From the NCBI GenBank assembly GCA_036439915.1, contig GCA_036439915.1_3065.1: a stretch of 64,000 bases of DNA; one strand, written 5' to 3'. This DNA is from a phage. The first letter of the stretch is position 1. The number at the start of each line of letters is the position of its first letter. Positions 15,728 to 63,473 of the stretch are shown here, piece by piece. Position numbers and translations under genes: made by a program. The notes beneath the pieces were generated by a model that worked only from the letters and a program-made list of their open reading frames with translations, was not told the DNA's origin and searched no databases.

Positions 15728-15730
15728 CAA

Positions 15731-15760
15731 TGGGGACCGAAAGGTCCCCATATTTTTATT
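15731..15760. terminator. Bidirectional terminator between gene 54 and the convergent alt-region ORF
   Basis: Stem TGGGGACC / GGTCCCCA with GAAA loop, T-runs both sides. Confidence 0.6.
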
Positions 15761-16046
15761 TACGGAACGAAATAAAAGCAGCAACTGAAGCAACTAAACT
15801 GTCTTCAATATAAACTTCAATTTTTACCGGAGCTTCTGACTCAAATTTGCCTGTTACTACACCTTGGAAAATGCTTTCAGTCTGTTCTGGCTTTGAAAAA
15901 TTTTCAGAAGGAAAAATTCCGAACTTTTTATCTGTTCCAAAAATTTTGATAAATTCATCGTAAACTGCTTCATTAAAAGCGTTATCAGCAGGAATAACGC
16001 CTTCAACTACGAGTTCTTGACCTAAAAAGCGCAAAGAAGATTTCAT
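15756..16046 (-). CDS. Hypothetical protein (position of T4 alt.-3)
   Basis: 96-aa ORF with SD GAGGA and its own early-type promoter. Confidence 0.6.
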   Translation of the reverse strand: MKSSLRFLGQELVVEGVIPADNAFNEAVYDEFIKIFGTDKKFGIFPSENFSKPEQTESIFQGVVTGKFESEAPVKIEVYIEDSLVASVAAFISFRK

Positions 16047-16052
16047 TTTGTG

Positions 16053-16108
16053 TTCCTCATGTTATGTCAGTAAGATTATTATAACACAACACGAGGGACT
16101 TGTAAACT
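16053..16108 (-). promoter_or_regulatory. Early-type promoter plus leader, copy 1 of a duplicated cassette
   Basis: Minus strand GTTTAC, 18-nt spacer, TATAAT, SD GAGGA; near-identical to 31846-31902. Confidence 0.5.
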
Positions 16109-18164
16109 ACATTTTGAACTTTTTAGACATTCCGTTGATATTAACCAAAGAAGCCAAGATTTGAGAAACTTCGTTTTCCTCTTCTTTTGATTCTTCTACA
16201 AGGAATTGATTAAATCCAGCCATTGGACGAACTTCACCAGTTTCCATTAGATGGTCGCCATCATATACCGATTCTTCTAATTGTTCAGAAGGAGGAACGA
16301 TTGTGCCTTCGATTAGATACTTGTTATAAGCAGTTTCTTTCATCATGTACGTACTCACTTTATTAATCTTCAGCAAAATTCCACGCGGTAGAATAACTTC
16401 AGCTTCTGATGGAAATCCTGATAAATGTCCTGGAACGATAACTTTGATTCGCTCAGCTCCTTTAATTACCATACCCACGCTAGTTTCAGCATCTTCATTG
16501 GCATACGCAGAATGACTACCCATATGCATTAAATCTTCAGCGTCAACAGAACCTTCTCCTTCACCAGAAAATACTGCACTGGAATCATCTAGGGCCATAT
16601 AGTTTTTACCATACTCACCGAAGATATTTGGTTTAAGCGATGTGGATACGAAGTTCTTGAAATAGAACATTTTATTTTCAATATTATGACGTAAAGTTTT
16701 AAAGGTAACTTCTTGGCCACGGTAAAGCGTAGTTCCTGGAGGAAGAACTGATCCTTTGGCAAAAGCAGAATCCATCGTCTCGATGTGTTTAATAGCTCGT
16801 TCCATATATTCTTCACGGGTAGAATCCGGTTTACCTAAAAGGAACGAGTTCATTTCAACATATGAATCTGCACAATAATCTTCAATTACATCAGACTCAG
16901 CCTGAGTTAATCCTTTTGGGGGTACTTCAGTACTTGCATATTCATACGCTTGAGAAGCAGACTCATTAATCAATTTATAAACGCCATTCATGACAAATTG
17001 AATAATAGCTACCTTTTCATCTGGCGTGGCTTTAGAACCTTTAACTAAATCATTGACAATTTTCTTAATAACATCAAAGCTATTAGAAATATTAATGTCA
17101 GCAAGATCACTTAAAATTTTATCAGTTTTATAATCAAAAAATTCTTTATTCTTTAAATATTCTTGAGAACCTTGATATGATATATCGCTCTGTAACTTGA
17201 TAGATGGATCACGTAAACGCGCATGAGCCAATGCAATATGATTTCGGAAGCTTTCTAATTCATAATCACTAGATTTAAAACGGGAAGCACTTCTCATACC
17301 ACCGATAGCTCCTTTGCTGAAGTTTGAACCAACCTGAATAACGCCGGAGTTCATTGGTCCTTCTGCTTTATATACCGGAACTTTAGATTCAAACTCTTGG
17401 TATTTCTTAGCAGCGAAGCTATCACCCTGAAGCGAAGCATCGACAGTAGAATATTGAGCTTGTGCTGCTAATCGACGACTAATTTTAGTTTTCTGAATAA
17501 CAGCTTGATCCGTGCGCTTATCATTTTCTAAAGCAATAGAAGCGGCAACAGCGACAGCTTTAGGAACAGCATTACCTGTTTTAACATCTACATAAACATC
17601 ACCAACCTTTGATTCAACTTTTGTGAATAACTCAGTTGAAATAGGAGGTACACCTGGAATGTCTTCTAAATTGGCATTTTTACGGTAAACCATAATATAT
17701 GCATATTTCTTATCATAGTCCCAGATTTCTTTTAAAAGAACATATCGACCTGCTCCTTTAGTACGTACTAAACGGTCAGCAATAACTTGAATTTGTCGAG
17801 CTGCGCCATTTGTTTTACTCTTTAGTACGCGGAATAAGCATGCGTCAATTTTGTACTGTTTCATTGTCTGAAGAGCAGTATCAAAAACCGCATTAATGGC
17901 ACCAATTGGATTTCCACCCAAGTTTTTAAGTTTAACTAATGATAGTTTCTCATTGACACCTATCATTACGATATGCATCATTTTATCGCCTGGCTTAACG
18001 TTTTTGTTTGTATCACCGCCAGAGGTGTATGTACAAAATCTAAATCCAGGAAGCACGCTTTCTTCACCTGCTTGAATAGCAAAAATTTGAGGTATTTTAT
18101 GCTTAGGATTTAAGTTAACAACCGGCGCCGAAGCGCCGTCAAATAATTCTGTAATAAGTTCCAT
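16107..18164 (-). CDS. Alt-like mono-ADP-ribosyltransferase, second tandem paralog
   Basis: 685 aa; starts MELITELFD; ART motifs YRGQ, FVSTSL, AEVILPRG; 3 nt after upstream alt copy. Confidence 0.8.
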   Translation of the reverse strand: MELITELFDGASAPVVNLNPKHKIPQIFAIQAGEESVLPGFRFCTYTSGGDTNKNVKPGDKMMHIVMIGVNEKLSLVKLKNLGGNPIGAINAVFDTALQTMKQYKIDACLFRVLKSKTNGAARQIQVIADRLVRTKGAGRYVLLKEIWDYDKKYAYIMVYRKNANLEDIPGVPPISTELFTKVESKVGDVYVDVKTGNAVPKAVAVAASIALENDKRTDQAVIQKTKISRRLAAQAQYSTVDASLQGDSFAAKKYQEFESKVPVYKAEGPMNSGVIQVGSNFSKGAIGGMRSASRFKSSDYELESFRNHIALAHARLRDPSIKLQSDISYQGSQEYLKNKEFFDYKTDKILSDLADINISNSFDVIKKIVNDLVKGSKATPDEKVAIIQFVMNGVYKLINESASQAYEYASTEVPPKGLTQAESDVIEDYCADSYVEMNSFLLGKPDSTREEYMERAIKHIETMDSAFAKGSVLPPGTTLYRGQEVTFKTLRHNIENKMFYFKNFVSTSLKPNIFGEYGKNYMALDDSSAVFSGEGEGSVDAEDLMHMGSHSAYANEDAETSVGMVIKGAERIKVIVPGHLSGFPSEAEVILPRGILLKINKVSTYMMKETAYNKYLIEGTIVPPSEQLEESVYDGDHLMETGEVRPMAGFNQFLVEESKEEENEVSQILASLVNINGMSKKFKM

Positions 18165-18167
18165 GAT

Positions 18168-20264
18168 TTATCCTTGAACGAACTTGTAAGGCATGTTTGT
18201 AATATCTATGCAAGACGCAATAATTCCGAGAGATGATTCTGCTTTCTGTTTAACATTTGATGAAACAAATGATGCAAAGTCAACTCTGTCTTCTATTTCA
18301 ATATCATCTGTCATTGCAACTACTTCACCAGTTTCCATTAGACGGTCACCGTCATAAATTACTGATTCGGTGAGTTCTTCCGTAGTCATAACTTCAGTTT
18401 GAATGAGTTTTGTATTATTAGATGTTGTTCCGTCATTATTAGAAGCATCAGTTATTTTATTAACTTTGACCATCAATCCGCGTGGTAGAATTACTTCAGC
18501 TTCTGTTGCTATTCCGAGACTTCCTGGATATACAACATTAACTTTATGAGCTCCATCAATTGCCCATCCTATTTGAACTTTAACGTATTCAGGATTTTCT
18601 TTATACGCTCTTATTTCGTTTGGATTAATAGTTATTCCTTCTTCATTTTTATCAACTGTTAATTCATTACGAGCTTCTGGTTCTAAAAGACCGATACCAG
18701 CATGTGTAATTCCAAAACGTCCAAAAATGATAGGAGTTAAAGAAGTAGATACAAAATTTCTGAAATAGAACACTTTATTTTTAACTAGCGCTTCGTATAT
18801 AGGAGCAGTCATACTTTGAGCACGATAAACTGTAATGCCTTCTGGTATACGGTCACCATTTTCAAAAGCTGAATCTAAATTATTTATCGCAGATTCAATT
18901 TCTTTTTCACTCATTACATCATATCGTTCTGGATTGTAACGACCCAAAAGAAGATTATTGATGTCAGTATATCCTGAACCACAATACTCTCTAATGCCGC
19001 GCTTTTGTGATGGAGTATATTTAGAACCATCACGGGCAATAGTAATATCAATCATTGGACCTGCACCAATTCCAGAAAAGCTATAAATCATTCGTTTGAG
19101 GAATTTAGTTTTTGCTGCGTTCCAGGAATTTTTAGTTATTTCTTCCCAGACTTCATCTGACTGCCCTTTACGGGTTTTATTATGTTTATCAAGCCAATTA
19201 TCTTTATATTCTTCAAAGAATTTATTAATAGCTGCTGCATACTTCTCTAAACATTTTATTGAAGTGGTTGGTTCATTTTTAATCGCATTGAGAATTACAT
19301 CTTTAATTTTTTCAGAAACTTCATTAACCTCACTTTTTGAAAAGAATTTATAGTCATAGTGAAGTTCATCTGCGGTTCCTTCGGCAATAATTTTTGCTGC
19401 CTTAGTTTTAGAAGCTAATGAATTAATTCCAAGCTTCATTTCTTCTGCTTCGGGAATTAAAGGAGCTGTAGCAGGTTTATTGAAATTAGCTGCGGTAGAT
19501 TCATATTTCTGGAATAATTCGCTTTCAAATCTAGAAGATTCTAATGACTGACTTTGCGCAATTGCTCTACGGGAAATTTTAACTTTAACGATTACAGCTT
19601 GGTCAGAACGTTTATCATTTTCTTGCGCAATAGATGCAGCAATTGCCTCATTTTTAGTTACTTGAGCTCCAGTATCTTTATTGATATAAACATCGCCGAC
19701 TTTCGATTCAACTTTAGTAAAGAGCTCGGTACTAATTTCCGGAACTCCTGGAATGTCTTCTAGTGATACATTTTTGCGATGTATAAGAATATATGCATAC
19801 TTTTTATCATAATCCCAGAGTTCCTTAAGAAGGACGTATCTTCCACCTGAACGACTACGGATAAGTCTATCAGCAATAACTTGAATTTGTCGAGCTTGAC
19901 CAGCAGTTTTAGACTTAAGAATACGGAGCATACAGGCATCAATTTTATACTGACGCATCGTCTGCATTGCAACAGTAAAAACTGAATTGATGTAATTAAT
20001 TGGGCTTGGACCGAGACCTTTTAATTTAGCAATTGAACCTTTAGCAGTTAATGTAAAAGGAACAATATGCATCATTTTATCGCCCATTTTTAAATCGCGA
20101 TTAGTATCACCTCCAGATGTATAGGTACATAAACGAAAGCCTGGTTGTTCAATTGCGTCATCAACGTGAACTGAAAAAATTTGTGGTATTTTCTTCTTTG
20201 GATTTAAGTTTGTAATCGGAAGAGTAGTATCTTCGTCAAATAATTCTGTAATAAGTTCCATCAT
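18168..20264 (-). CDS. alt: Alt ADP-ribosyltransferase (virion-packaged)
   Basis: 698 aa; starts MMELITELFD; ART motifs YRAQ, FVSTSL, AEVILPRG; late promoter upstream; adjacent to gene 30. Confidence 0.85.
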   Translation of the reverse strand: MMELITELFDEDTTLPITNLNPKKKIPQIFSVHVDDAIEQPGFRLCTYTSGGDTNRDLKMGDKMMHIVPFTLTAKGSIAKLKGLGPSPINYINSVFTVAMQTMRQYKIDACMLRILKSKTAGQARQIQVIADRLIRSRSGGRYVLLKELWDYDKKYAYILIHRKNVSLEDIPGVPEISTELFTKVESKVGDVYINKDTGAQVTKNEAIAASIAQENDKRSDQAVIVKVKISRRAIAQSQSLESSRFESELFQKYESTAANFNKPATAPLIPEAEEMKLGINSLASKTKAAKIIAEGTADELHYDYKFFSKSEVNEVSEKIKDVILNAIKNEPTTSIKCLEKYAAAINKFFEEYKDNWLDKHNKTRKGQSDEVWEEITKNSWNAAKTKFLKRMIYSFSGIGAGPMIDITIARDGSKYTPSQKRGIREYCGSGYTDINNLLLGRYNPERYDVMSEKEIESAINNLDSAFENGDRIPEGITVYRAQSMTAPIYEALVKNKVFYFRNFVSTSLTPIIFGRFGITHAGIGLLEPEARNELTVDKNEEGITINPNEIRAYKENPEYVKVQIGWAIDGAHKVNVVYPGSLGIATEAEVILPRGLMVKVNKITDASNNDGTTSNNTKLIQTEVMTTEELTESVIYDGDRLMETGEVVAMTDDIEIEDRVDFASFVSSNVKQKAESSLGIIASCIDITNMPYKFVQG

Positions 20265-20284: not shown

Positions 20285-20292
20285 TATTTATA
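20285..20292 (-). promoter_or_regulatory. T4-type late promoter (TATAAATA) for alt
   Basis: Minus-strand TATAAATA about 20 nt upstream of alt ATG. Confidence 0.5.
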
Positions 20293-24196: not shown

Positions 24197-24237
24197 AATA
24201 TTTTCCTCAGTAAGGGGCCGAAGCCCCTCATTTTATT

Positions 24238-24603
24238 TTAAATATCAAATTCGTTAAGAACTACATCAAAGATTGCTTCAAGATGCTCAGGTTTAGCTCT
24301 GTTACTCAGAATATGACGAATCCAAGTTTTAACCAAAAGCTTGCGATTATCACCATTCCAGCAAGGATGAGTCCCTAAATCGCGTTGACGAAAATCATCA
24401 TCTAAAGCGATTTTAAAATTTGAACCTTCCACTGTGATTGAAACCGTGATGCCATTTTCAAATCGCATATAAACGTAGTTAGGAGTCATATACTGTTCAA
24501 TTTCGCATACTGATCCATTTTGATGTTTCCAAAGGCAAATAGTATCAATAGAACCTGCAATACCATTAGAAACATATTTACGTTCAAAGTTGATGTAGTT
24601 CAT
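24238..24603 (-). CDS. Hypothetical protein
   Basis: 121-aa ORF. Confidence 0.55.
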   Translation of the reverse strand: MNYINFERKYVSNGIAGSIDTICLWKHQNGSVCEIEQYMTPNYVYMRFENGITVSITVEGSNFKIALDDDFRQRDLGTHPCWNGDNRKLLVKTWIRHILSNRAKPEHLEAIFDVVLNEFDI

Positions 24604-24671: not shown

Positions 24672-25004
24672 TTATTTTACTACTTTCCAGTGCTTCATGT
24701 CAAGTTTACCGACTTTTTTCATCTTCTCAATTAAGCGTTCGGCACGTTGGCGAGCTGTAACATAATACCATTCACCTAATTCATTTTGTTCAATTTTTCC
24801 AACGATTACTGTATTCAATTCATAAATCCAACCAGTAAAGAAATTATGAACTTGAATTGTAAAGGTGAAATCTGTTCCCATACCTTCTGTTGTTTCTACT
24901 TCAATAATATCACCTTCAACTGCTATTAAGAACCACATAGTTTCGTTATATTCACCATTGAAGCATTTAGCTTTAACTGCAGCGTTCAGATTAATCGTTT
25001 TCAT
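24672..25004 (-). CDS. Hypothetical protein
   Basis: 110-aa ORF with early-type promoter upstream. Confidence 0.55.
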   Translation of the reverse strand: MKTINLNAAVKAKCFNGEYNETMWFLIAVEGDIIEVETTEGMGTDFTFTIQVHNFFTGWIYELNTVIVGKIEQNELGEWYYVTARQRAERLIEKMKKVGKLDMKHWKVVK

Positions 25005-25031
25005 TTTATTCTCCTTTGTTTGTGTAAGATA

Positions 25032-25061
25032 ATACTATCACAAAGGAACCATACTGTAAAC
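25032..25061 (-). promoter_or_regulatory. Early-type promoter
   Basis: Minus GTTTAC, 18-nt spacer, TAGTAT. Confidence 0.4.
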
Positions 25062-30996: not shown

Positions 30997-31346
30997 TTAG
31001 AAAGGTCCTGGATGTCTTCTGCGAACTTGTTGAAGGAGTTGTTGATTTGTTTTTCAACCAATCCTGGCTTACGAGCCACCACATCCGCCTTCTTTGCATC
31101 TTTGCGCAGTTTTTCATTTTCACGCTCAATAGCAGCAATCGCCTCACGATTTTTATTATTCATCGCATCAATATAATTATACTGAATTCGCAAATTATTT
31201 AATGCTAAGGCGTTTTCATTGGCCGTTTTTGTAATTTCTACAACAGACGTTTCTAATCTTTCTACCTTATTTTTTAAAATAATAGATGTTCCGCCAAATG
31301 CTATTACAAGTAATAGCAATCCAGCTGTAAAATTACTTACATGCAT
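30993..31346 (-). CDS. Putative i-spanin (Rz-like)
   Basis: 117 aa; N-terminal TM helix then charged coiled-coil-like region. Confidence 0.55.
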   Translation of the reverse strand: MHVSNFTAGLLLLVIAFGGTSIILKNKVERLETSVVEITKTANENALALNNLRIQYNYIDAMNNKNREAIAAIERENEKLRKDAKKADVVARKPGLVEKQINNSFNKFAEDIQDLSK

Positions 31347-31840
31347 AAAGTTTTAATAACCTCTATAATATCGTCTTGAGAAAGACCGTTAATTAAAATA
31401 TGATGTTCAGCTGGAGATTTAGAAATTTTAAAGCATGCCTCAACATCTTCTGCCATATCCGATGCACTACGATTTGGATTACTAATTCCAAGACGATGTT
31501 TTCCCGTCAAAGGATTAACGATGATATAGCATTTGCAGCTATTGATATGAACATTAGGCTGAGTCTGATTAATGAATACTTCGCACTCATACTTAGCGAG
31601 TTGATTTTCTAAAAAGACTTTCATCTCCTCAACCGCATCAGGAAGCATATCACGGGCTTGCTCAAGACGACGATTTCGATATTCTTTAATGGTCGTTTTC
31701 CGTTTGACTTGCTTAGCTAAATCTTTCTTAAGATCGGTGATATATCCAACTCGACGATTTCCTTTAAATACAGAAATCCCATCCGTAGTATCACCGTATG
31801 CTTCAACAACCATTTCAGTAGTAATAAGCTGCAAATCCAT
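31337..31840 (-). CDS. alc: Alc, host transcription shutoff protein
   Basis: 167 aa from second ATG (T4 Alc length); upstream of pseT cluster as in T4. Confidence 0.75.
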   Translation of the reverse strand: MDLQLITTEMVVEAYGDTTDGISVFKGNRRVGYITDLKKDLAKQVKRKTTIKEYRNRRLEQARDMLPDAVEEMKVFLENQLAKYECEVFINQTQPNVHINSCKCYIIVNPLTGKHRLGISNPNRSASDMAEDVEACFKISKSPAEHHILINGLSQDDIIEVIKTLCM

Positions 31841-31845
31841 CATAA

Positions 31846-31902
31846 AGTCCTCATGTTATGTCAGTAAAACTACTATAACACAACACGAGGGACTTGTAAA
31901 CA
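31846..31902 (-). promoter_or_regulatory. Early-type promoter plus leader, copy 2 of duplicated cassette
   Basis: Minus GTTTAC, 18-nt spacer, TATAGT, SD GAGGA; near-identical to 16053-16108. Confidence 0.5.
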
Positions 31903-31904
31903 GC

Positions 31905-33492
<1,588 letters not shown>

Positions 33493-33519: not shown

Positions 33520-34698
33520 TTAAAAGTATTTTTTAAAACTCATCATAACTTTATCATCAACATCATTATCAATCTGTGCAACAAGATAAGATGACAGTTC
33601 TACTTCTTGTGGCGCGGATTGAACATTATCAGAATTAAGGTATTCACGAATCCAAGGATATGGATGTTTAACCGGAGCATCGGTAATTGGGCATGGAAGA
33701 CCACACTGTTTCATACGAGATACAGTTAAATAATCAATAAAGCTCCACATGCTATTTGTATTTAATCCAGGAACATCGCCATCTTTAAATAAATGAACTG
33801 CCCAATCTTTTTCTTGGCGGTTAACTTCCATGAAAATATCAACTGCTTCTTGTTCACACTCTTGAGCAATTTTAACCCATTCATCACCATCAGTGCCAAG
33901 TTGAAGTTGACGAATAATATACTGGGTGCCTTTAAGGTGAAGCTGCTCATCACGTGCAATGAACTTCATAATCTTCGCATTACCTTCCATGATTTCCATA
34001 TTTTTATGGAAGTTGAAAGTACATGCAAAGGATACATAAAAACGAATAGCTTCCAGGGCATTGATAACATGAAGGCAGAGATAAAGCGACTTCATCAATG
34101 CATATTTACATTCTTCCACATGCATAAGACTATTTGAATATGCATCTAAATCATATTCATTTTCGGAAAAACATTTAAAAATTTCTTTTGCATTTTCCCA
34201 TTCGCGCGTCTTAACCAGAACATCATCATAATAACGACCAATAGATTCAGCACGTTTCATGATAGCTTTATCTAATACAATCTCATCAAATACCTTTGAC
34301 GGATCAGTATAAAGATTTCGCATAATATGAGTGTATGAACGACTGTGAATAGTTTCACTAAAAGTCCATGTAGCAACCCATGTATCAAGACTTGGGTCTG
34401 AAATTAACGACATAAGTACAGCAGACGGTGCACGACCCTGAATGCTATCTAGAAGTGATTGATACTTCAGGTTATTAGTAAAAATATCTTGCTGATATTG
34501 AGGAAGCTTGTTAAATTGCGCAGCATCCATCATTAAGTTTACTTCTTCAGGACGCCAGAAAAATGACAATTGCTTTTCGGTTAAATCTTCAAAAACTTTA
34601 TGACGTTGAATATCATAACGCGCAATACCAAGACCTGAACCGAAGAACATAGGTTCTTTTAAAACATCAACTGGATTTGTATTAAAAACTGTGCTCAT
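33520..34698 (-). CDS. nrdB: Ribonucleotide reductase beta subunit, uninterrupted
   Basis: 392-aa continuous ORF starting MSTVFNTNPVD; no intron. Confidence 0.9.
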   Translation of the reverse strand: MSTVFNTNPVDVLKEPMFFGSGLGIARYDIQRHKVFEDLTEKQLSFFWRPEEVNLMMDAAQFNKLPQYQQDIFTNNLKYQSLLDSIQGRAPSAVLMSLISDPSLDTWVATWTFSETIHSRSYTHIMRNLYTDPSKVFDEIVLDKAIMKRAESIGRYYDDVLVKTREWENAKEIFKCFSENEYDLDAYSNSLMHVEECKYALMKSLYLCLHVINALEAIRFYVSFACTFNFHKNMEIMEGNAKIMKFIARDEQLHLKGTQYIIRQLQLGTDGDEWVKIAQECEQEAVDIFMEVNRQEKDWAVHLFKDGDVPGLNTNSMWSFIDYLTVSRMKQCGLPCPITDAPVKHPYPWIREYLNSDNVQSAPQEVELSSYLVAQIDNDVDDKVMMSFKKYF

Positions 34699-40403: not shown

Positions 40404-40781
40404 CTACTTTTTGAAAGTTTTTCGCAAAAGTTCAATGATTCGATCTACATTGTTTTCGTCAACGATGCAGTGAATTTTTGTTACGCCAGAAATCGTGTCT
40501 TCGCCTTCATCTTCAGAAATCGGTTCTTTATACTCGCGAAAGCAATAAAATTCGTCTTCGCAAATTTCTGAAAGTCTATCACAAAAGTAAAAATGTTTTC
40601 CATTGGCGCATTCAATATGTTTTACTGCTTTAAATCCATTATTAAAGAAAACTTCTTTAACTTCAAACCATCCACCATTTTCTTTGATAATTTTAACTAT
40701 CGATCCATTAGAACGTGGGCTATGACTAATAAATGCGTCAATGAGACTTGGAATAAGTTCATACTTTTTACCGATATACAT
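40404..40781 (-). CDS. Hypothetical protein, extra ORF between frd region and gene 32
   Basis: 125-aa ORF preceded by hairpin and SD. Confidence 0.5.
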   Translation of the reverse strand: MYIGKKYELIPSLIDAFISHSPRSNGSIVKIIKENGGWFEVKEVFFNNGFKAVKHIECANGKHFYFCDRLSEICEDEFYCFREYKEPISEDEGEDTISGVTKIHCIVDENNVDRIIELLRKTFKK

Positions 40782-44473: not shown

Positions 44474-47400
44474 ATGGCCGAGATTAAAAGAAAGTTCAGA
44501 GCAGAAGATGGTCTGGACGCAGGTGGTGATAAAATAATCAACGTAGCTTTAGCTGATCGTGCCGTAGGAACTGACGGTGTTAACGTTGATTACTTAATTC
44601 AAGAAAACACAGTTCAACAATATGATCCAACTCGTGGATATTTAAAAGATTTTGTAATCATTTATGATAACCGCTTTTGGGCTGCTATAAATGATATTCC
44701 AAAACCAGCAGGAGCTTTTAATAGCGTACGATGGAGAGCGTTACGCACTGATGCAAACTGGACAACTGTTTCGTCAGGACCTTATCAATTAAAATCAGGC
44801 GAATCGATTTCAGTTAACACCGCAGCGGGTAATGACATTACATTTACTTTGCCATCTTCTCCAATTGATGGTGATACTATCGTTCTCCAAGATATTGGAG
44901 GAAAACCTGGAGTTAACCAGGTTTTAATTACAGCTCCGGTACAAAGCATTGTAAACTTTAGAGGTCAACAAGTACGCTCAGTACTAATGACTCATCCAAA
45001 ATCACAGATAGTTTTAATTTTTAGTAATCGTCTGTGGCAAATGTATGTTGCTGATTATAGCAGAGAAGCTGTAGTTGTAACACCGGCGAGTCTTTATCAG
45101 GCGCAATCAAACGATTTTATCGTGCGTAGATTTACTTCTGCTTCAGCAATTAATATTAAACTTCCTAGATTTGCTAATCATGGGGATATTATTAATTTTG
45201 TTGATTTAGATAAATTAAATCCGTTATATCATACTATCGTTACTACATACGATGAAACGACTTCAGTACAAGAAGTTGGAACTCATTCCATTGAAGGCCG
45301 TACATCTATTGATGGTTTCTTGATGTTTGATGATAATGAGAAATTGTGGAGATTGTTTGACGGGGATAGTAAAGCACGTTTACGCATTATAACGACTAAT
45401 TCTAATATTCGTCCAAATGAAGAAGTCATGGTATTTGGCGCGAATAATGGAACAACCCAAACAATTGAACTTCAGCTTCCAACTGATATTTCTATCGGTG
45501 ATACTGTTAAGATTTCCATGAATTATATGAGAAAAGGACAAACAGTTAAAATCAAAGCTGCCGGTGAAGATAAAATTGCTTCTTCAGTTCAATTGCTGCA
45601 ATTTCCAAAACGTTCAGAATACCCACCTGAAACTAAATGGGTGACTGTTCAAGAATTAGTTTTTAATGGCGAAACCAATTATGTTCCAGTTTTACAGCTT
45701 GCTTATATCGAAGATTCCGATGGAAAATATTGGGTTGTACAGCAAAACGTTCCAACTGTAGAAAGAGTAGACTCTTTAAATAATTCTACTAGAGCAAGAT
45801 TAGGCGTAATTGCTTTAGCTACACAGGCTCAAGCTAATGCTGATCTAGAAAATTCTCCACAAAAAGAACTGGCAATTACTCCAGAAACGTTAGCTAATCG
45901 TACTGCTACAGAAACTCGTAGAGGTATTGCAAGAATAGCAACAACTGCGCAAGTAAACCAGGATACCACATTCTCTTTTGCAGATGACCTTATCATCACT
46001 CCTAAAAAGTTGAATGAAAGAACTGCTACAGAAACTCGTAGGGGTGTCGCTGAAATTGCTACGCAGCAAGAAACAAACACAGGAACAGATGATACAACCA
46101 TCATTACTCCTAAAAAGCTTCAAGCTCGTCAAGGTTCTGAATCATTATCTGGTATTGTAACTTTTGTATCTACTGCAGGTGCTACTCCGGCTTCTAGCCG
46201 TGAATTAAATGGTACAAATGTTTATAATAAAAACACTAATAACTTAGTTGTTTCGCCAAAAGCTTTGGACCAGTATAAAGCTACGCCTACTCAACAGGGT
46301 GCAGTAATTTTAGCAGTTGAAAGTGAAGTAATTGCTGGACAAAGTCAGGAAGGATGGGCAAATGCTGTTGTAACGCCAGAAACGTTACATAAAAAGACAT
46401 CAACTGATGGAAGAATTGGTTTAATTGAAATTGCTACGCAAAGTGAAGTTAATACAGGAACTGATTATACTCGTGCAGTCACTCCTAAAACTTTAAATGA
46501 CCGTAGAGCAACTGAAAGTTTAAGTGGTATAGCTGAAATTGCTACACAAGTTGAATTCGACGCAGGCGTCGACGATACTCGTATCTCTACACCATTAAAA
46601 ATTAAAACTAGATTTAATAGTACTGATCGTACTTCTGTTGTTGCTCTATCTGGATTAGTTGAATCAGGAACTCTCTGGGACCATTATACCCTTAATATTC
46701 TTGAAGCAAATGAGACACAACGTGGTACACTTCGTGTGGCTACACAAGTTGAAGCTGCTGCTGGAAAATTAGATAATGTTTTAATAACTCCTAAAAAGCT
46801 TTTAGGTACTAAATCTACTGAAGCACAAGAAGGTGTTATTAAAGTTGCAACACAAACCGAAACTGTTGCTGGAACATCGGCAAATACTGCTGTATCTCCA
46901 AAAAATTTAAAATGGATTGTGCAGAGTGAACCTACTTGGGCAGCTACTACTGCAGTAAGAGGCTTTGTTAAAACTTCATCTGGTTCAATTACATTCGTTG
47001 GTAATGATACAGCCGGTTCTACTCAGGACTTAGAGCTATACGAGAAAAATAGCTATGCAGTATCACCATACGAATTAAACCGTGTATTAGCAAATTATTT
47101 GCCATTAAAAGCAAAAGCTGCAGATAGTAATTTATTGGATGGTCTAGATTCATCTCAGTTCATTCGTAGGGATATTGCGCAGACGGTTAATGGTTCACTA
47201 ACCTTAACTCAACAAACGAATCTGAGTGCCCCTCTTGTATCATCTAGTACTGCTACGTTCGGTGGATCAGTTTCAGCAAATAGTACATTAACTATTTCTA
47301 ATACTGGAACAGCAACTCGATTGATTTTTGAGAAAGGACCTCAAACTGGAACAAACCCAGCCCAAACGATGACTGTTAGAGTGTGGGGAAATCAATTTAG

Positions 47401-60875: not shown

Positions 60876-60903
60876 TTTCTGTTCCTCCGTAGTTGATAGG
60901 GTA

Positions 60904-60933
60904 ATAGTACCACGGAAGAACAGTCTTGTAAAC
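60904..60933 (-). promoter_or_regulatory. Early-type promoter (cassette family)
   Basis: Minus GTTTAC, 18-nt spacer, TACTAT; leader CAACTACGGAGG shared with 61391-61415. Confidence 0.45.
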
Positions 60934-62292: not shown

Positions 62293-62310
62293 AAGGGCCG
62301 AAGCCCTTAT
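62293..62310. repeat. Hairpin AAGGGC-CGAA-GCCCTT, copy 1 of direct repeat
   Basis: 18-bp identity to 62521-62538; flanks the 64-aa ORF. Confidence 0.8.
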
Positions 62311-62311
62311 T

Positions 62312-62506
62312 TTATTTGAATTGTGCAATTCTTTTCTCTAGACACTCAGCATAAGATTTCATTGAGATGAACTGTGAAAGCAGCAGTTCTTGCTCAACTG
62401 CACTAACCGTTAGAAACTTTGCGCTTTCTAAAAATTTGCTCAGTGCATTAATTTTGAGCATTAATTGGTCGTATTCTTCTTTTACTCGTGCTTGATAACC
62501 TAACAT
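62312..62506 (-). CDS. Hypothetical small protein between rIIB and denB
   Basis: 64-aa ORF with SD AAGGAAAA, flanked by identical hairpins. Confidence 0.5.
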   Translation of the reverse strand: MLGYQARVKEEYDQLMLKINALSKFLESAKFLTVSAVEQELLLSQFISMKSYAECLEKRIAQFK

Positions 62507-62520
62507 AATTTTCCTTAGTT

Positions 62521-62540
62521 AAGGGCCGAAGCCCTTATTT
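62521..62540. repeat. Hairpin AAGGGC-CGAA-GCCCTT, copy 2 of direct repeat (overlaps rIIB stop)
   Basis: 18-bp identity to 62293-62310. Confidence 0.8.
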
Positions 62541-63473
62541 AAATTGTTCAGTAACGTCTTCAATTACTTCGTATTGGCAGGTACGCATTTTAGCGTCGTT
62601 GTAATCAATCGGAATTGATACTACATCACGAGGATGAACTTTAACTTTTACAACTCGGCTGGTTGAACCACCGAAGTGACGAATATAAGATTTAGAACAC
62701 ACATGCAGACCACGAGAACAAGTTTGTGTATCATCGTCATTCACACGAGTACGCGGCATTTTAACTACTTTACCAGGACTGTTATCAAAGGTATTTGAGT
62801 GACAGTCAAAGTAATTGCTACGAACTACTTTCCAAGCATAGAAGTAACCATCTTCTGTAATTTCAATATCGTTTGCTACCAAGAAATCAAAAAGTCGAGA
62901 TACCGCTTTCTGGCTTGGGTTTTCCAGCAGATTTTCCAAGAACGGAAAATAAAATTCAAAGTTTTCGCCTTTTTCCATCGAATCAAGAATACGATCAACC
63001 AAACCAGACCGCAATTCAATATTTTGATAGAATAAGCTTCCACCTTCAATTCGAACTTCGCCGGAAATATATTTTTCAACAGCGCGACGAACATTAATTT
63101 TTTGTGCCGCTTCTTCCAGCTTATCCGCTACAAGCAGATTGAGAATTTCCTGGAAGTTTGAATGAGTATTAGGCGTTGCATTATAAGTTACACCATCAAC
63201 AGTAATCGAAATGAATTTTTTAGATGCATTCCAAATAATGTCAGATTTAGCAACTGGAGCAATAACTGCATCGCTATTAACTTTAACTGTAATATCACCG
63301 CTAATAGTAATTTTAGAGTGTTTAGCTTCTTCAGCATTTTTCAAAACACGACGGATTGTATCAACCGATACACCTTGCCAATCAGCCAATTCTTGCTGAG
63401 TATAATTACCGCTTGAATACAGTTTAACAATTTCAGCTTGTTCATTTTTGGTCAGGCATTTAATATTGTACAT
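62535..63473 (-). CDS. rIIB: rIIB
   Basis: 312 aa (T4 rIIB length), downstream of rIIA. Confidence 0.85.
   Translation of the reverse strand: MYNIKCLTKNEQAEIVKLYSSGNYTQQELADWQGVSVDTIRRVLKNAEEAKHSKITISGDITVKVNSDAVIAPVAKSDIIWNASKKFISITVDGVTYNATPNTHSNFQEILNLLVADKLEEAAQKINVRRAVEKYISGEVRIEGGSLFYQNIELRSGLVDRILDSMEKGENFEFYFPFLENLLENPSQKAVSRLFDFLVANDIEITEDGYFYAWKVVRSNYFDCHSNTFDNSPGKVVKMPRTRVNDDDTQTCSRGLHVCSKSYIRHFGGSTSRVVKVKVHPRDVVSIPIDYNDAKMRTCQYEVIEDVTEQFK

Follow-up and report, generated by a model that had tools for sequence, protein, structure and literature searches.

T4-type phages carry promoter-early stem-loop (PeSL) cassettes (Arbiol et al. 2010, PMC2839356; Comeau et al. 2014, PMC4122927). 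As described there, a PeSL combines an early sigma-70 promoter, a stem-loop that overlaps the -35/-10 region, and a Shine-Dalgarno sequence (SD) with a start codon at the 3' end. It is intergenic, lies directly past the upstream stop codon, is repeated in the genome, and has patches of homology that have been tied to exchange between loci. The PST/T4 pair is said there to carry PeSLs of the form TTTACW-N17-TAYWAT, and the text has no mention of alc or alt.-3. Here, we analyze a 64,000-nt stretch of phage DNA (GenBank assembly GCA_036439915.1, contig GCA_036439915.1_3065.1; hereafter the window) in which two near-identical copies of an early promoter-leader cassette precede alt.-3 (copy A) and alc (copy B). 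The window belongs to the genus Tequatrovirus (T4-like): both regions match ~500 Tequatrovirus genomes at 95-99% identity, and the window is collinear with T4 positions 119,992-138,434.

Both copies have the PeSL layout, with a stable stem-loop inside an early promoter, the upstream stop codon on the 5' side and the SD and start codon on the 3' side. Repetition and exchange, the other PeSL trait, are also found here: there are two copies, haplotypes shared between them, variation in alt copy number and replaced promoters (those of Tequatrovirus alt.-3 and Mosigvirus alc). The pair is a feature of T4 itself and lies within an already described class. It differs from the described PeSLs in three respects: (i) the stem is long (15-18 bp) and G.U-rich, lacks GGGG/CCCC and has the leader and SD as its 3' arm; (ii) no U-tract or terminator-like feature comes after the hairpin; and (iii) the copies flank 13-16 kb of DNA with essential genes rather than a single ORFan, and alc is conserved family-wide.

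Two other groups of T4 elements are related to the cassette. At e, soc, 49 and I-TevI (PMC3014915), a long read-through RNA buries the SD or AUG, and a promoter inside the hairpin gives a shorter, translatable RNA without the 5' arm, resulting in temporal gating. Those gates use late promoters and restrict translation to late times, whereas the promoter of the present cassette is early and its predicted gate would be early-only. The list of SD-hairpin cases in that review does not include alc or alt.-3. The internal-protein (IP) loci of T-even phages likewise have repeats with AT-rich stem-loops that are based on T4 early promoters (Repoila et al. 1994, as outlined in PMC2839356). These repeats flank variable genes whose shuffling they are proposed to mediate, whereas the cassette pair is at another locus and its position is fixed in all ~500 Tequatrovirus genomes. 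The present analysis adds (i) a predicted promoter-in-hairpin arrangement that, if the modeled folds are right, should limit translation to the cassette's own early transcript, (ii) the covariation by which the alc version is kept across the subfamily and (iii) an alt.-3 copy that, judged by sequence, appears to be a genus-level transplant with traces of later exchange.

We propose the following explanation, to which we assign a probability of roughly 0.55 as a whole. Each copy would be a compact early-expression cassette made of a strong sigma-70 early promoter, a leader and a GAGG SD. Transcripts from the cassette's own promoter would start between the two arms of the hairpin, leaving the SD free for early translation of alt.-3 and alc. 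Transcripts derived from upstream (late alt mRNA at copy A and early/middle nrd-denA-rnlA mRNA at copy B) would carry both arms and fold into a 15-18-bp hairpin in which the SD is buried, and translation of alt.-3 and alc would thereby be limited to the period of early-promoter firing. The hairpin promoter would be ancestral at alc; the alc cassette would have overwritten the native alt.-3 promoter before Tequatrovirus radiated, and both copies would since have been held by purifying selection, with occasional further conversion. We are highly confident in one part, the duplicated early promoter-leader cassette, and give even odds to another, the SD-gating function, which comes from predicted folds.

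A 54-nt early promoter cassette is duplicated upstream of alt.-3 and alc

A repeat search of the window returned a 54-nt direct repeat (Table 1) whose copies are identical at 51 of 54 positions (94%), lie 15,794 bp apart and are both on the minus strand. The initial annotation, working from a hand count, had reported ~50 of 55 bp in direct orientation and 15.8 kb apart, and the alignment it proposed, which we ran with MAFFT, confirms the repeat by returning the same 54-nt block. Identity falls to background on either side (over 40 nt, 16 matches upstream and 10 downstream). Thus, the edges of the repeat are sharp and run from the G of GTTTAC to the A following GAGG. When the two halves (28 nt on the 5' side and 20 nt on the 3' side) were searched separately with up to 3 mismatches, each was found at exactly two sites in the window, and two matches were found in none of 100 dinucleotide shuffles.

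Phage T4 has the same pair, with 53 of 54 positions identical. A search with the 54-mer returned 999 sites with an identity of 94% or more, spread over 500 Tequatrovirus records, so that each genome has two copies; at the DNA level, this search gave no matches beyond Tequatrovirus. A scan of IMG/VR with the 5' arm found 6 loci on 5 contigs only. Some GenBank records already carry a "promoter" annotation at the cassette sites.

By promoter scan, both copies have a T4-type early promoter consisting of GTTTAC/TTTACA, a 17-nt spacer and a TGn-extended -10, followed by a leader of roughly 25 nt and a GAGG SD. These features agree with the T4 early signature, in which GTTTAC lies at -36 to -31 and the -10 is TG-extended (PMC1524935; PMC2988021). 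Compared with T4 early promoters as summarized in these papers (Liebig and Ruger 1989; Miller et al. 2003), the cassettes share GTTTAC, the TG-extended -10, an apparently A-rich upstream region and a place upstream of early genes; they do not differ as promoters, and the window cassette adds complementarity between spacer and leader. T4 early promoters also have an A-rich, UP-like element at about -40 to -44; upstream of the -35, copy A has AAAAAGTTCAAAATGTA and copy B has CAGAAGGATACTAAGCT with an A-run further up, which may be such elements. The order of promoter, leader and SD given in the initial annotation was thus found in both copies, and its gene labels, alc and alt.-3, were upheld by open reading frame (ORF) matches and Pfam (ALC and DUF5498). 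Its 18-nt spacer is correct when counted from GTTTAC and becomes 17 nt when counted from the sigma-70 hexamer TTTACA.

T4 early promoters have an extended consensus, and two of them could resemble each other through a shared promoter and ribosome-binding site (RBS) consensus with no common origin. Unrelated promoters of this type show how far such likeness goes: the other T4-type early promoters of the window are 58% +/- 3% identical to the alc element over 58 nt (maximum, 64%). Over the same length, the alt.-3 copy is 88% identical to the alc element, and the T4 pair is 91% identical. Therefore, the pair is a true duplicate rather than a case of promoter-consensus likeness. The shuffles given above and the identity of the non-consensus spacer and leader also refute shared consensus as the explanation, and we give it next to no probability.

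The cassette is an inverted repeat predicted to bury the SD in read-through RNA

The initial annotation overlooked that the element is also an imperfect inverted repeat, in which the spacer and -10 pair with the leader and SD. In the folded element, the 5' arm CCCUCGUGUUGUGUU is made up of the spacer plus one base, the first, of the -10; the leader and SD form the 3' arm GACAUAACAUGAGG, and the remainder of the -10 lies near the top of a 15-18-bp stem. The predicted fold of read-through RNA is -21.4 kcal/mol (z = -4.4) for copy A and -27.3 kcal/mol (z = -5.8) for copy B, and none of 200 shuffles gave an equally good fold. The start sites at 16071 and 31865, which are predicted from the geometry of the -10, fall between the arms; the cassette's own transcript would therefore hold only the 3' arm. 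Both arms are present only in RNA read through from the upstream genes. Folded by itself, the 3' part that makes up the own transcript is essentially unstructured, and the predicted probability that the SD is unpaired is 0.15-0.52 in the own transcript versus 0.001-0.006 in a 240-nt read-through RNA. Thus, the folds predict a translational block of read-through RNA.

The whole window gave no hit to Rfam 15 at the gathering score; the sole sub-threshold hit, to an miRNA, is a chance match (19.9 bits; gathering score, 140). A RegB cleavage site was considered and dropped, since the SD is GAGG and not GGAG (RegB specificity from PMC3014915).

Such a gate requires RNA that enters the cassettes from upstream. 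The terminator scan found no terminator-like site before either cassette. A late-promoter motif, TATAAATA, lies ~20 nt upstream of the first of the two tandem alt genes (Table 1), so late transcripts would run through both alt genes into copy A. This late motif is in neither element, and the internal promoter is of the early sigma-70 type. T4 has the middle promoters PnrdB and PI-TevIII upstream of rnlA/alc, and neither alc nor alt.-3 has a listed middle promoter of its own. In a T4 time course (PMC9697503 supplements), alc and alt.-3 are classed as early RNA and early protein, alt as late, and rnlA as early RNA and late protein; the intensity of the Alt.-3 protein rises early and then reaches a plateau. 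The timing and read-through facts fit an early-only gate and do not prove it. The initial annotation had suggested that the shared element may reflect co-regulation of the two genes. This is supported in a general sense only: both give early RNA and early protein in T4, but so do dozens of other early genes (PMC9697503).

The alc hairpin co-varies among genera of T4-like phages

We examined the rnlA-alc junction in Tequatrovirus and 12 other genera of T4-like phages. An SD-in-hairpin arrangement, with the 5' arm directly after GTTTACA, was found at alc in 11 of the 13 genera (among them Tequatrovirus, Jiaodavirus, Karamvirus, Gelderlandvirus, Dhakavirus, Moonvirus, Bragavirus, Winklervirus, Roskildevirus and Marfavirus, the last with the weakest hairpin at -13.4 kcal/mol). 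The arm sequences vary by genus, for example, UCUCCGUUUAGUU/AACUAAACGGAGA, UCCUCGUCAG/CUGAUGAGGA and ACCUCUCAUUUU/AAAAUGAGAGGU.

We then set the arms by position only (16 nt after GTTTAC versus 30 nt before ATG) and calculated duplex energies within and between genera. The mean was -17.45 kcal/mol for arms of the same genus versus -8.79 +/- 3.64 kcal/mol for cross-genus combinations (permutation p <= 1e-5), and the own partner ranked first in 9 of 13 genera. A covariance model seeded on 4 genera recovered both copies of the window (E = 0.01 and 0.12) as well as the elements of the other genera, together with several other hairpin promoters and some reverse-strand matches. In the alignment to this model, 90.1% of cells pair (62.5% in shuffles and 42-49% in slid controls) and two-sided changes occur in 13 of 13 pairs, counts that lean towards structure because the model shapes the alignment and hairpin promoters that are not orthologous are part of it, a bias to be set against the gate. 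RNAalifold on a plain MAFFT alignment of the 13 alc upstream regions found no structure; the arms are out of register between genera. At the level of sequence comparison, the predicted alc hairpin is kept by covariation across the subfamily.

These comparisons bear on the possibility that the inverted repeat works as DNA, either as a site for a phage or host regulator or as a cruciform that modulates or shuts off the early promoter, with the RNA hairpin being incidental. The arms are symmetric around the -10 and start site, such repeats are present at many T4-type early promoters, and T4 early promoters are shut off after ~3 min by a mechanism stated to be unknown (PMC2988021). However, the arm sequences vary between genera and between promoters of one genome and their complementarity alone is kept, which is the signature of a folded single strand, and the tolerated G.U pairs (G16.U49 and G21.U44) fit RNA rather than a DNA duplex or cruciform. 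We consider a role as DNA very improbable.

Evidence against an SD gate and a possible role in transcription or RNA stability

Several observations weigh against an early-only SD gate. First, the gate is not obligatory: among the folded alc regions, that of Mosigvirus has no hairpin, the hairpins of Tegunavirus and Kanagawavirus lie around the -10 and spare the SD, and the alt.-3 promoters of other genera also do without an SD hairpin. Second, burial is partial in Marfavirus, where the alc SD is predicted to be unpaired with a probability of 0.29 in a 240-nt read-through RNA. Third, stem substitutions within Tequatrovirus are few and mixed, with about five compatible with the stem (G16A, C15T, C11T, G40A and the double change C15T+G50A) and four disruptive (G16T, T19A, G18A and G40T). 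Fourth, in a longer read-through context, the SD of Mosigvirus alt.-3 is predicted to be mostly paired (0.006 unpaired). Fifth, the authors who described PeSLs (PMC2839356 and PMC4122927) read such stem-loops as terminators or attenuators and not as translational gates. Finally, a literature search returned no 5'-end mapping, ribosome profiling or reporter data for the two sites.

Stem covariation within Tequatrovirus was set aside as evidence, the variation being too little and too mixed. A stepwise compensatory series is seen among the alt.-3 copies: C15-G50 in the consensus, U15.G50 in T6 and U15-A50 in vB_ECOLIGBLB0003, where the last step turns the SD core GAGG into AAGG.

Alternatively, the stem-loop could act mainly on transcription or RNA stability, as a terminator, an attenuator or a protective 3' hairpin for rnlA and alt, with the promoter restarting transcription behind it. 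In both copies, the cassette is found right at the upstream ORF's end, and PeSL stem-loops placed between a promoter and lacZ are reported to lower expression about as much as the rrnB T1 terminator (PMC2839356). SD masking, however, would produce the same drop in lacZ. Several early promoters of the window have a hairpin around the -10 only, with the SD free (see below), so the class cannot serve SD masking alone. An intrinsic terminator was ruled out: the tails after the two hairpins, AACACAAAAUG and ACUUUAUGAUG, have no U-run, and the terminator scan was negative at both cassettes yet detected the hairpin at 15730-15751. In other genera, the sequences past the 3' arm are A-rich and not U-rich. 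Moreover, the 3' arm sits on the SD in 11 of 13 genera and not elsewhere in the intergenic space. We consider a main role in transcription or stability unlikely.

The alt.-3 copy appears to derive from alc

In six other genera, alt.-3 orthologues follow alt and each has an early promoter. These six promoters have a different conserved spacer with a small CACAAGGATGTG-type hairpin, and their local folds have no SD-burying hairpin. Since the alc-type cassette is present at alt.-3 only in Tequatrovirus, the most economical reading is ectopic replacement from alc. The sequences therefore suggest that the alt.-3 cassette arose by ectopic conversion from alc, the direction being our inference.

In Mosigvirus, the spacer of the alc promoter is of the alt.-3 type, and this promoter and its alt.-3 partner share 78% identity, versus 60 +/- 7% for others. 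In Mosigvirus SHSML-52-1 (20013-20074 and 34352-34412), the alc promoter has lost the SD hairpin and carries the alt.-3-type spacer. Its leader, CAACACGAGG, has kept full complementarity to the 5' arm of Tequatrovirus (duplex, -19.8 kcal/mol). The pattern resembles a promoter swap that went the other way. In Jiaodavirus, alc and alt.-3 have the -10-to-ATG half in common (76% versus 60 +/- 4%). Concerted evolution in every genus was ruled out, as the alc and alt.-3 promoters are not specially alike in Karamvirus, Gelderlandvirus and Dhakavirus.

Within Tequatrovirus, eight genomes show single changes at scattered sites, most of them close to the hairpin's top. A haplotype with two single-nucleotide polymorphisms (SNPs), TATAATAAT, has exact matches next to alt.-3 in 31 records and next to alc in 5, and phage PP01 has it at both sites. 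In GBLB0003, A16 and C27 are common to its two copies. These shared haplotypes suggest occasional later gene conversion between the copies.

The initial annotation had regarded the repeat as a substrate for recombination that would delete or duplicate the intervening region. The shared haplotypes and the promoters homogenized genus by genus do point to occasional ectopic conversion, but deletion or duplication was not seen: among the 500 genomes, none lacks the interval and none has extra copies of the element. The interval contains genes 30, 31, cd, pseT and rIII. Genes 30 and 31 of T4 are essential and headful packaging leaves only a few kb of terminal redundancy, so neither the deletion nor a 15.8-kb duplication should be viable. 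Homologies of ~50 bp suffice for T4 recombination (Singer 1982, as cited in PMC2839356), and such events may thus occur but be lost.

A stronger form of this idea is that the repeat is mainly a recombination site, a PeSL-type linker for modular shuffling through deletions, duplications and mini-circles. Its length of 54 bp is near the minimal T4 homology, the two-SNP haplotypes are common to both loci, promoters have been homogenized in opposite directions in Tequatrovirus and Mosigvirus, and the copy number of alt varies next door (remnants in T4, two in the window and three in Dhakavirus KIT01). Against this, 500 of 500 genomes keep both copies and the interval with genes 30, 31 and other conserved genes, and PeSL mini-circles were described for nearby PeSLs around single small ORFs, not of 13-16 kb of core genes. 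A linker role would also leave unexplained the co-varying alc hairpin in genera without a second copy. We therefore regard recombination as an improbable main function.

The window has two full-length tandem alt paralogs (16107-18164 and 18168-20264, minus strand) whose proteins are 42% identical, and T4 has only the remnants alt.-1 and alt.-2 where the second alt stands here. Two are also present in T6, PP01, KIT03 and P8. The copy number of alt, a packaged effector, varies directly beside copy A.

Other hairpin promoters and features of the window

Approximately 11 early promoters with an identifiable SD are present in the window, and we denote each by the position of the minus-strand G of its GTTTAC. 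An SD-burying hairpin was found at four of them: 16107 and 31901 (copies A and B), 60933 and 25061, the last upstream of gp30.8. Three others (40404, 28598 and 24669) have a hairpin around the -10 only. The class therefore has at least two sub-types. It is possible, though this is a tentative generalization, that T4-type early promoters often lie in an RBS-burying hairpin that acts as an early-only gate and is movable between genes by ectopic conversion.

Details of these promoters are as follows. At 60879-60933 (minus strand), an early promoter lies in a hairpin that buries a GGAG SD (GTTTACAAGACTGTTCTTCCGTGG...CTACGGAGGAACAG; -22.7 kcal/mol, z = -5.1). It serves a small membrane-protein-like ORF (MKKIVKAIWNVV...) and was also recovered by the covariance model. 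At 25012-25061 (minus strand), in the promoter of the gp30.8 homologue (24672-25004), the SD region is paired to the spacer (GGTTCCTTTGTG / CAAACAAAGGAG), an architecture equal to that of the alt.-3/alc cassette. At 40404, 28598 and 24669 (minus strand), the inverted repeats (z = -3.3 to -4.1) take in only the -10 and start site, and the SD stays free.

The stop codon of the second alt paralog (TAG, 16107-16109) overlaps the G of the copy A GTTTAC. Downstream of alt.-3, the convergent genes 54 and alt.-3 are separated by a GC-rich hairpin (15730-15751) that has a perfect 9-bp stem and T-runs on both strands, and that looks like a bidirectional terminator; a related sequence is present at 2212-2237. 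A hairpin of the form (A)AGGGCCGAAGCCCT(T) with T/A-rich tails occurs three times (24200-24238, 62293-62318 and 62508-62546), and the three look like repeated terminator-type stem-loops. At 45875-46825 (plus strand), diverged in-frame repeats of ~40-68 nt (ATTACTCC.AAAA..TT...ACTGCTACAGAAACTCGTAG.GGT, several times) look like a recurring peptide motif in a large structural (tail-fibre-like) gene.

Table 1. Positions of the cassette parts, the genes they serve and adjoining features in the window.
Feature	Position	Strand	Remarks
Copy A of 54-bp cassette (-35 through SD)	16054..16107	-	Upstream of alt.-3
Copy A -35 TTTACA	16101..16106	-	GTTTAC at 16107-16102
Copy A 5' arm CCCTCGTGTTGTGTT	16083..16097	-	Promoter spacer and first -10 base; upstream of predicted start
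Copy A -10 TATAAT	16078..16083	-	Preceded by TG; 11/12 sigma-70 consensus; spacer 17
Copy A predicted start	16071	-	A, 7th nt past -10; from -10 geometry
Copy A 3' arm GACATAACATGAGG	16055..16068	-	Includes SD GAGG 16055-16058
Copy A GAGG SD	16058-16055	-	From the sequence
alt.-3 ORF	15756..16046	-	96 aa; Pfam DUF5498; ATG at 16046; gene after copy A
Copy B of 54-bp cassette (-35 through SD)	31848..31901	-	Upstream of alc
Copy B -35 TTTACA	31895..31900	-	GTTTAC at 31901-31896
Copy B 5' arm	31877..31891	-	Fold prediction
Copy B -10 TATAGT	31872..31877	-	Preceded by TG; 10/12 sigma-70 consensus; spacer 17
Copy B predicted start	31865	-	7 nt past -10; from -10 geometry
Copy B 3' arm	31849..31862	-	Includes SD GAGG 31849-31852
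Copy B GAGG SD	31852-31849	-	From the sequence
alc ORF	31337..31843	-	Pfam ALC; ATG at 31843; start annotated in T4 is the second ATG, 31840
Second alt paralog (ADP-ribosyltransferase)	16107..18164	-	Full-length; upstream of copy A; source of read-through RNA
alt, first of tandem	18168..20264	-	Late-promoter motif ~20 nt upstream
Late-promoter motif TATAAATA	20285..20292	-	~20 nt upstream of alt (18168-20264)
rnlA (RNA ligase 1)	31905..33065	-	Upstream of copy B; source of read-through RNA
Terminator-like hairpin, bidirectional	15730..15751		Between gene 54 and alt.-3; transcription unit end

Implications for T4-like phages

The pair is a clean natural case, in a lytic phage, of a whole promoter-leader-RBS unit that was copied from one gene to another at a distance of 13-16 kb and has been retained for the life of the genus. 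A C-terminal extension of alt.-3 lets T4 escape the CmdTAC defence (PMC11618068). For engineering, it is useful to know that this gene comes with a strong, self-contained cassette for early expression. These findings leave the general picture of T4 gene expression as it was. If the gate works, T4 early proteins would also be shut off at a post-transcriptional level: with the early promoters silent, middle and late read-through RNA could still cover alc and alt.-3 but would not be translated, which would help to explain how the synthesis of early proteins such as Alc stops. For PeSLs, the role would then be, in part, the translational insulation of a gene from upstream transcription, instead of or besides termination.

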